From contig CP084167.1 of assembly GCA_021513715.1 (NCBI GenBank), forward strand, positions 352,001-416,000: a DNA stretch of 64,000 nt, written 5' to 3'. Numbering within the stretch: the stretch's first letter is position 1; the number at the start of each line of letters is the position of its first letter. Below, one piece after another: positions 16,254-17,746 of the stretch. The translations under genes and the position numbers were made by a program. The notes beneath the pieces were generated by a model. The model saw only the letters and a list, made by a program, of their open reading frames with translations. It made no database searches and was not told the origin of the DNA. This DNA is from Candidatus Heimdallarchaeum endolithica (lineage in GTDB: Archaea > Asgardarchaeota > Heimdallarchaeia > Heimdallarchaeales > Heimdallarchaeaceae).

Positions 16254-17746
16254 ATGAAGAGAAGAAGAAGAAAAAGAAAAATAAGAGGAAAAAAGATGGA
16301 GAAGATAGTCAAAACTTTGAAAGTTAGAATAAAGAATGAAGTTTTGACGAGGAGAAAAAAGGAAAGATTAAGGAGAATAACAGGGAGAGACACAAGGATA
16401 ATAGAAAAATATGTAAAAATTATTCATCACAACAGAAGAAGACTGTGTATGAAAACAAAGAAAGGAGAAATAAGAGTACATAAAGGGAAGTTAGATGAAC
16501 TAACATTAACAACATCAAGGATAAAAAAAGTAGAAGAGCGAAGAGAGACTGTTCCTCATGACCTTAAAAAGATGTTTCCCTATTGTTCTCACGATGAGTT
16601 TCAAGAGTGCAGAGATATAGCAGTACAACTGTACGAGCAAGGATATAGACCTGAAGCCACTCGTCCTCCAAAAAAGAGACCCCGAAGACAACTAATCAAT
16701 AAAAAAAGATTTATTCTTACTAATTTACCAAAAGAGAAAAATAACTCTATTTCTCGTTGGTGGGTAGGAATAAGAGACTCATTAGACACGTGGAAAAGAA
16801 AGACCCCCTACCATCAGAAGTTGTGGTTACCTTTAGAGATGAGCACTTTTCATCAAAAAGAATTGAAAAAAGGACAAGTGAAAAGCCTGGAATTAAGATA
16901 TAAACGTTCTACACGTGAGTGGTGGGTGTATTTTCAATTAGAAGTTCTTCCTCCTTCTTCTTTTCTAAGCGATAATTCCTCTTCTTCTTCTCTTCCTCCA
17001 GCTGTGCTGGGGATAGATCTAGGGATAAACATTCCTGCTGCAGGAGTGTTACTAACTCCCAAAAAGAAATTAACTATTAAAGAAATAAAATTTTGGCATA
17101 CCAAACAGTGGAATAGAATTAATCACAGATATAAACTCAAGTTTTCCCGTCTTCAGAGGAAAGCAGCTTTAAATGACCAGTCGGGTAAAAAACACCAAAT
17201 TTATCGTTTCCTTAGTCTTCTCAGAAGAAGATATAGAAACGTTAAACGGTCCTATATTCACCAATTTATAAGCGACGTTGTGCGGACGATAGAGACCTAT
17301 GCAAAAGTGTATGACCTTTTCGTCGTCGTAGGTTACCCCAAAAATGTTAGAAAAAAAAAGGAAAAGGTAAAAGTACTCGTTATTATCGTAGAAAACTTTA
17401 CCAGTGGAATTATGCTCATATTCTTAGTCTTCTCCGTCGAGCATTGATATTAAGAGGTTTTGAATCTCACCGCATTCTCACTTTAGACGAAAGAGGAACA
17501 TCTTCTCATTGTTCCCGTTGTGGAAAAGAAGTTTCTCGTCCCGTCAGAGGATTAATACACTGTCCCTTTTGTAACTATACTTACCACTCTGATTTAACAG
17601 GAGCTAGAAATATTGCTCGTAAATTCCTTAGTCATCTTTTTCGTCCCCGTACTACAACTATTACTGATTATTTTACTGGTCAAAAGTTTAGTCTTACGCA
17701 TTATACTGTTTGCCGAGGACTCAGCCATTGGTTGCAGTCCCAGTAG
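16254..17746 (+). CDS. tnpB: TnpB/Cas12f-like RNA-guided nuclease, RuvC-II rearranged, split by a -1 frameshift at the A9 run (17351-17359)
   Basis: GIDLG (RuvC-I), VVVGYP (Gly at canonical Glu), LDERGTSSHCSRC, CPFC, HSDLTGARNI (RuvC-III); adding one A fuses both ORFs. Confidence 0.87.

Follow-up and report, generated by a model that had tools for sequence, protein, structure and literature searches.

The tnpB gene in the analysed window, a stretch of 64,000 nucleotides from the Candidatus Heimdallarchaeum endolithica genome, lies in a 1,824-bp element that contains no second gene and no transposase, and this is probably a non-autonomous Heimdallarchaeum TnpB (OMEGA) element that relies on RNA-guided cutting for homing or retention and is moved by an enzyme encoded elsewhere. 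The sequence-only reading recognized the TnpB gene but missed the mobile element with inverted ends that surrounds it (Table 1). What is new is the architecture, with inverted ends, an AT core and no transposase, in a genome where no aCas1 was found; our literature search found no description of it. The active-site variant was already known.

Table 1. Features of the element, its TnpB and its surroundings (positions in the window)
Feature	Position	Strand	Remark
3' part of the interrupted host gene (acidic DxDxDG-repeat surface protein)	15051..16154	-	frame rejoins across the empty site
Left junction CAT, target-derived	16155..16157	+	predicted TAM 5'-CCAT when the C before it is included; shared core AT
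Left-end arm of the imperfect inverted repeat; two TTTTGCGAA-type units spaced by about 10 bp	16158..16188	+	boundary common to 12 copies
TATA-like box 5' of tnpB, putative promoter	16226..16235	+	TTTTTATA kept in all close copies
tnpB, about 483 aa (WED/REC, RuvC, C4 zinc finger), frameshifted	16296..17746	+	
RuvC-I Asp D241 (DLG motif)	17016..17018	+	conserved 103/103
Gly G346 at the canonical RuvC-II Glu position	17331..17333	+	kept 102/103; aligned to Cas12f Glu
A9 run carrying the frameshift	17351..17359	+	sister copies in frame here
Shifted Glu E399, predicted catalytic, six residues before the zinc finger	17489..17491	+	103/103
RuvC-III Asp D433	17591..17593	+	conserved 103/103
Predicted omegaRNA scaffold, ends at the right-end CAT	17745..17981	+	possible 5' overlap with the stop codon
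Right-end arm of the inverted repeat, last bases ...GTAAAT-CAT	17950..17981	+	conservation ends after CAT, 21 copies
5' part of the interrupted host gene	17979..18617	-	
Predicted guide, host flank after the right end	17982..18001	+	variable among copies; matches the empty site
Compact serine recombinase, 249 aa, candidate trans-acting mobiliser, outside the element	53351..54097	-	

The encoded protein matches PF07282 above its cut-off, scores 77 bits against NF040570 (cut-off, 100) and has the WED/REC region and split RuvC with C4 zinc finger of TnpBs, with a fold match to TnpB/Cas12f. Four motifs, GIDLG, VVVGYP, LDERGTSSHC and HSDLTGARNI, are present, the first two in a different frame from the last two because of the frameshift in the A9 run. 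Given that the genome is a Nanopore assembly (PMC8813620), this homopolymer frameshift may be an assembly error, or it may be a real lesion; as assembled, the protein of this copy is broken, and its RNA could be used by intact copies. Residue numbers refer to a read-through of the frameshifted copy with X at the break (483 aa). The closest named relatives are copies in Ca. Heimdallarchaeum aukensis (85–88% identical), identity to most relatives is 35–45%, and the named homologues come from Heimdall- and Thorarchaeota, plus one partial match labelled Aenigmatarchaeota.

The active site conforms to what had been read from the motifs: intact RuvC-I and RuvC-III aspartates, DLG rather than DPG at RuvC-I, and a Gly for the canonical RuvC-II Glu with a Glu 53 residues further on, the spacing from G346 to E399. 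All three acidic residues (D241, E399 and D433) are invariant among the 103 full-length homologues, G346 is replaced in only one of them and DPG occurs in none. With this degree of conservation across homologous sequences, the Gly/shifted-Glu pattern is not a product of chance. In an HMM alignment, the Gly sits on the RuvC-II Glu of Cas12f and the shifted Glu on the Pro of the Cas12f 'P.YTS' motif, while hhalign places E399 on the shifted Glu of a Fanzor2-type protein. A structure prediction had been proposed as a check on this residue; an intact paralogue has an AlphaFold model (pLDDT 85.5, about 90 around the shifted Glu) in which the residue (E402) ends strand 397–401. Alignment and secondary structure would thus place the shifted Glu in the active site. 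Gly or Pro at RuvC-II together with a conserved Glu six residues before the zinc finger is the signature of RuvC-II-rearranged (TnpB2/RIIr) proteins. The protein carries it, and the named full-length homologues are all Asgard, in agreement with the proposal of a rearranged Asgard TnpB.

ApmFz2 cannot do without its shifted Glu, DNA cutting has been shown for the archaeal rearranged TvTnpB, and the rearranged TnpBs assayed so far showed no collateral cutting (PMC10530073). A nuclease-dead or binding-only protein similar to TldR or Cas12m, in which the Gly has killed RuvC-II and the later Glu is structural, would account for the absence of the canonical RuvC-II Glu, but we regard it as improbable: the three acidic residues remain invariant down to about 32% identity, the guides differ from one insertion site to another, the genome contains no second match to them next to a TAM, and TvTnpB and ApmFz2 are active with this arrangement (PMC10530073). 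TldR-like proteins are marked by lost acidic residues and a fixed guide, and this family shows neither. Residue conservation and target bias (see below) point to RNA-guided, TAM-dependent cleavage, and the earlier suggestion of an active nuclease probably holds for the family, judging from its sequences, though not for this copy, which is frameshifted as assembled. Intact paralogues such as C1:1,140,428-1,138,971 (subfamily A) and C1:1,755,897-1,757,342 (subfamily B) have a predicted TAM and a defined guide boundary, which makes them candidates for a compact RNA-guided nuclease.

The Gly with a relocated Glu had been named as a mark of Fanzors and of the RuvC-II-rearranged TnpB clades. Fanzors and pro-Fanzors are defined by DPG plus the shifted Glu (Yoon et al.), and the same authors count 5,053 TnpBs with only the shifted Glu vs 1,227 with both Fanzor signatures. 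According to Altae-Tran et al. (PMC10691335), a rearranged RuvC-II is found in two major clades and in eight large branches, the largest of which has Gly. The Gly/shifted-Glu state is also present in nearly all near relatives and in two unrelated TnpBs of the same genome, one with CAT-type inverted ends (C1:598,141-599,385) and one in an IS605-type element with a Y1 TnpA (C1:923,996-925,099). Across these sequences, the site is a common variant and not a rare marker.

Relatedness to Fanzors and convergence with them had both been proposed. Close kinship is not supported by a RuvC tree of viral DPG proteins, typical RDxN TnpBs, other rearranged TnpBs and Asgard sequences (an unrooted tree of about 257 columns from a hand-picked sample, in which Fanzors are represented by Fanzor2-type sequences only). 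Its Fanzor2-type sequences are seven viral DPG proteins, one of which was checked and has ApmFz2 as its best PDB match (E 1e-24). They group with the typical RDxN TnpBs (support 100/99), and the Asgard TnpBs form a clade of their own (100/99) placed among the NADxN TnpBs. An AU test rejects the monophyly of Asgard and Fanzor2 sequences (p=0.00044). The phylogeny that the sequence-only reading had called for yields an Asgard clade among NADxN TnpBs and rejects the grouping with Fanzor2; on these sequences, a sister relationship between the Asgard TnpB clade and Fanzor2 is not supported. The rearranged site takes two changes on this unrooted tree, and the Gly/shifted-Glu site common to Asgard TnpBs and Fanzor2 may be convergent or an old shared state.

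Among solved structures, Cas12f matches best (E 1e-20; Z 18.9, rmsd 5.4, 360 aligned), and the fold match to ApmFz2 ranks below it (Z 15.5, rmsd 5.6, 362 aligned). A PDB search with the family profile gave no Fanzor chain at E up to 10, and the top 50 fold matches include no Fanzor1 entry, both of which are to be read as absences only. Although Cas12f1 (AsCas12f, OsCas12f) is the best match in both sequence and structure, it has the canonical RuvC-II Glu, is CRISPR-associated and is only 12–13% identical to the Asgard TnpB.

One could still see in the Asgard clade the prokaryotic relative of Fanzors, or their source, passed on at eukaryogenesis. The inverted-repeat ends recall some Fanzor1 transposons, Fanzors share the Gly and also have the shifted Glu at six residues from the zinc finger, and the range of the family is Asgard-only. 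Several entries into eukaryotes are allowed by Jiang et al. (PMC10530073); however, the lack of DPG in all 103 homologues, the AU result against joining Fanzor2, the better sequence and fold match of Cas12f than of ApmFz2, and the derivation of Fanzor2 from cyanobacterial IS607 pro-Fanzors and of Fanzor1 from Fanzor2 (Yoon et al.) make such an origin highly improbable. For Fanzor2, these sequence comparisons largely refute it, and an Asgard protein with an active site of Fanzor type is no evidence for an Asgard origin of Fanzors.

Fanzor2 and the IS607 pro-Fanzors resemble the Asgard element in the shifted Glu, the overall fold and a 3' RNA with a flank-derived guide (predicted for the Asgard element), but the latter lacks the DPG and RDxN motifs and an IS607 TnpA, is separate in the tree and has an AT core instead of GG. 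TvTnpB and the RIIr clades have DLG, Gly at RuvC-II and Glu six residues before the zinc finger in common with the Asgard protein, and the Asgard family, as the TnpB2/RIIr clades do, fits the D{P}G shifted-Glu pattern of Yoon et al. TvTnpB belongs to an IS605 element with a Y1 TnpA and a TGAC TAM (PMC10530073), whereas the Asgard protein (about 485 aa) belongs to an element with no TnpA, inverted ends and a predicted VCAT TAM.

The copies have sharp ends, with CAT followed by G-CTTTACTTTTTGCG on the left and CGCAAAAAGTAAAT-CAT on the right. The end arms form an imperfect inverted repeat of about 30 bp built of tandem 10-bp units, and CAT is found at both junctions and once at the empty site. 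Elements of the IS200/IS605 group (including IS1341) have asymmetric hairpin ends and no shared junction sequence; IS607 elements have a GG core, no terminal inverted repeats and a serine TnpA with HTH and catalytic domain inside the element. Neither description applies here.

An empty allele was seen in four metagenome runs of four studies. It joins 16154 to 17979, skips 1,824 bp, keeps one CATG and links CCAT to the flank used as the predicted guide. Near 16119, the host gene that the element interrupts contains a stop where the four metagenome runs have a sense base, which suggests decay after insertion. The element is inserted at N-CAT. For copies from H. aukensis and metagenomes, the corresponding empty sites of this genome read CATA, CATG, CATT and CATC, and since the left junction nevertheless reads CATG, the left G belongs to the element. 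A 4-bp CATG duplication was ruled out on the same grounds. Exceptions with GAT or AAT on the left and GAT on the right limit the shared core to AT at most. At one locus (L084), the two flanks map to places separated by 32 kb, which hints at a misassembly or a rearrangement between copies.

The region of about 240 nt after the stop codon folds with z=-4.2, with none of 200 shuffles as good, and 9 of 66 pairs show compensatory change; an Rfam search of this region matched no family. TnpB (OMEGA) elements are expected to have such a structured RNA region at their right end, with a variable flank behind it, as is the case here, and the omegaRNA is presumably expressed from the element. The right CAT would mark the start of the guide, because conservation ends there and by analogy with other TnpBs, so that the predicted guide corresponds to the host flank that follows it.

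In all eight copies of subfamily A, C precedes the left CAT, and in 15 of 17 copies of subfamily B a purine does (Fisher p=4e-5). This bias was spotted post hoc; of the H. aukensis copies that had been held out, four of five have a purine there. T was found in this position in 0 of 27 cases, against a background of 37%, and the element's own right junction reads TCAT. IS607 TnpB cuts after TGGG and spares its own TCGG end (10.1101/2023.11.20.567912). By this analogy, the target sequences suggest a TAM of CCAT in subfamily A and RCAT in subfamily B, although the bias could alternatively come from a mobiliser that reads different left ends. The likeness to IS607 TnpB elements such as the C. botulinum IStron extends to the one-base self/non-self difference between target and right end, the 2-bp core common to both and the footprint-free empty site; the Asgard element differs in its inverted-repeat ends, its AT core and the lack of an in-element serine transposase. 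A hybrid copy (C1:3,321,853-3,323,307) combines the left end and N-terminus of subfamily B with the C-terminus and right end of subfamily A, and its target, GCAT, follows the B side.

In the mechanism that we favour, homing or retention by RNA-guided cutting, intact copies would supply a TnpB-omegaRNA complex guided by the flank after the right-end CAT, and the D/shifted-E/D triad would cut DNA 3' of the TAM (CCAT in subfamily A, RCAT in subfamily B). The TAM would be present only at the empty donor site, the right junction TCAT would escape cutting, and repair from a filled copy would restore the element, with mobilisation provided in trans by an enzyme encoded elsewhere. Judging from the sequences, TnpB likely acts as a homing nuclease that cuts its own empty site. 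The genome contains 12 near-full copies with 80–93% protein identity, 8 intact and 4 broken (including this one), and two further copies at 53% protein identity. Pairwise dN/dS among the intact copies is 0.12–0.22; they are under purifying selection.

The family is present in 14 of the 24 genomes of the Heimdallarchaeaceae family. Elsewhere, a gene of >1,250 codons with a Cas1-like N-terminus stands head-to-head with TnpB in 23 of 79 related loci, mostly in Thorarchaeota. Signals for its Cas1 identity are weak but concordant (Pfam E 0.001 in 1 of 11 members; Foldseek prob 0.98, E 0.12), and we treat it as a putative Cas1-like gene. The aCas1-linked TnpBs match members of the 100/99 Asgard clade at 62–77%, and since they fall in this same clade, the protein family is already published: Altae-Tran et al. 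(PMC10691335) described the GTTCACTCA motif for these Cas1H-Asgard TnpBs and proposed aCas1 as their transposase. We found GTTCACTCA after TnpB in the aCas1-linked loci as well. In contrast to the Cas1H-Asgard loci, the Heimdallarchaeaceae copies are solo, multi-copy and have CAT-core inverted ends, and no aCas1 was found beside any copy, in this single-contig genome, in H. aukensis or in the 24 family genomes. In several Thor loci (L031, L032, L033, L039, L041 and others), GTTCACTCA is followed by about 9–15 variable bases and then by a motif that recurs 5' of tnpB, where a hairpin region with the complement GAGTGAAC lies behind its own TATA-like box. This arrangement is possibly a split, tracr-like guide or a mini-CRISPR served by aCas1.

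As for the enzyme that moves the element, a search of the genome, a single contig, turned up no aCas1, IS607 TnpA or IS630 transposase. The genome encodes one Y1 TnpA (in its own IS605-type element beside a MITE), one tyrosine recombinase and only two serine recombinases. The compact serine recombinase in the window, with a catalytic and a partial recombinase domain, or its paralogue at C1:317k, is our best guess for the mobiliser, possible but short of probable, and would excise and integrate the element via the 2-bp AT core, on the model of IS607 TnpA and its GG core. It would suit the core no longer than AT, the footprint-free empty alleles, the repeated 10–12-bp end units and a 720-bp deletion between two CAT-like sites adjoining the element (L006). 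The enzyme is also conserved (about 75% identical) across 22 of the 24 family genomes, where solo elements occur, and in none of 16 outside the family, but co-distribution among kin is not independent evidence. Moreover, none of the CAT-ended elements found encodes a recombinase; the enzymes seem to be inherited vertically, have no N-terminal HTH of the IS607 type and score far below NF033518; and IS607 elements have no TIRs (PMC13565253).

The inverted ends suit DDE or Cas1 integrases, and a DDE transposase or aCas1 acting in trans, with a 2-bp AT duplication, is a second tentative candidate. The head-to-head Cas1-like gene, the transposase role proposed for aCas1 (PMC10691335) and the apparently homologous right ends (ACTCA in Thor, ACTCAT in Heimdall) speak for it; against it stand the lack of aCas1 in the genomes searched, the lack of an IS630-type transposase, and the different ends and flanks of the IS4/IS5-like, IS481 and other repeated ISs of this genome. 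The 33-copy IS4/IS5-like element was rejected as a partner, as it has CATG inside its own TIR and other flanks. A broken copy of it, with GCATGTCCAAAAATT ends, starts at about 22386 (+) in the window, which also contains an IS481 transposase (13844-14782, -) present in 29 copies with long direct repeats.

Genome self-comparison, end scans and a search for the right-end pattern in five relatives yielded only TnpB-only or miniature CAT-ended elements and no autonomous one. Two other TnpB families and two miniature-element families of this genome share the CAT/AT junction. They might all belong to an undescribed AT-core inverted-end class (at least three unrelated TnpB families and omegaRNA-only miniatures), moved in trans by a vertically inherited chromosomal recombinase that replaces aCas1 and sorted by TAM (CCAT, RCAT or TCAT), the TAM variants determining which insertions persist; we consider this joint reading rather unlikely.

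One miniature family, protein-less and about 385 bp long (C1:798,600-798,981 and about 16 other sites), has CAT junctions, a shared ACTTTTTTACGTAA end and a block that resembles the omegaRNA of another Heimdall TnpB (L009). The other, of about 360 bp, has seven copies with CAT/GAT junctions, including one in the window (44403-44761); it shares its TTTTTGTACA end units with a canonical-Glu TnpB family (C1:2,688k, 3,217k), and most of its targets read TCATG.
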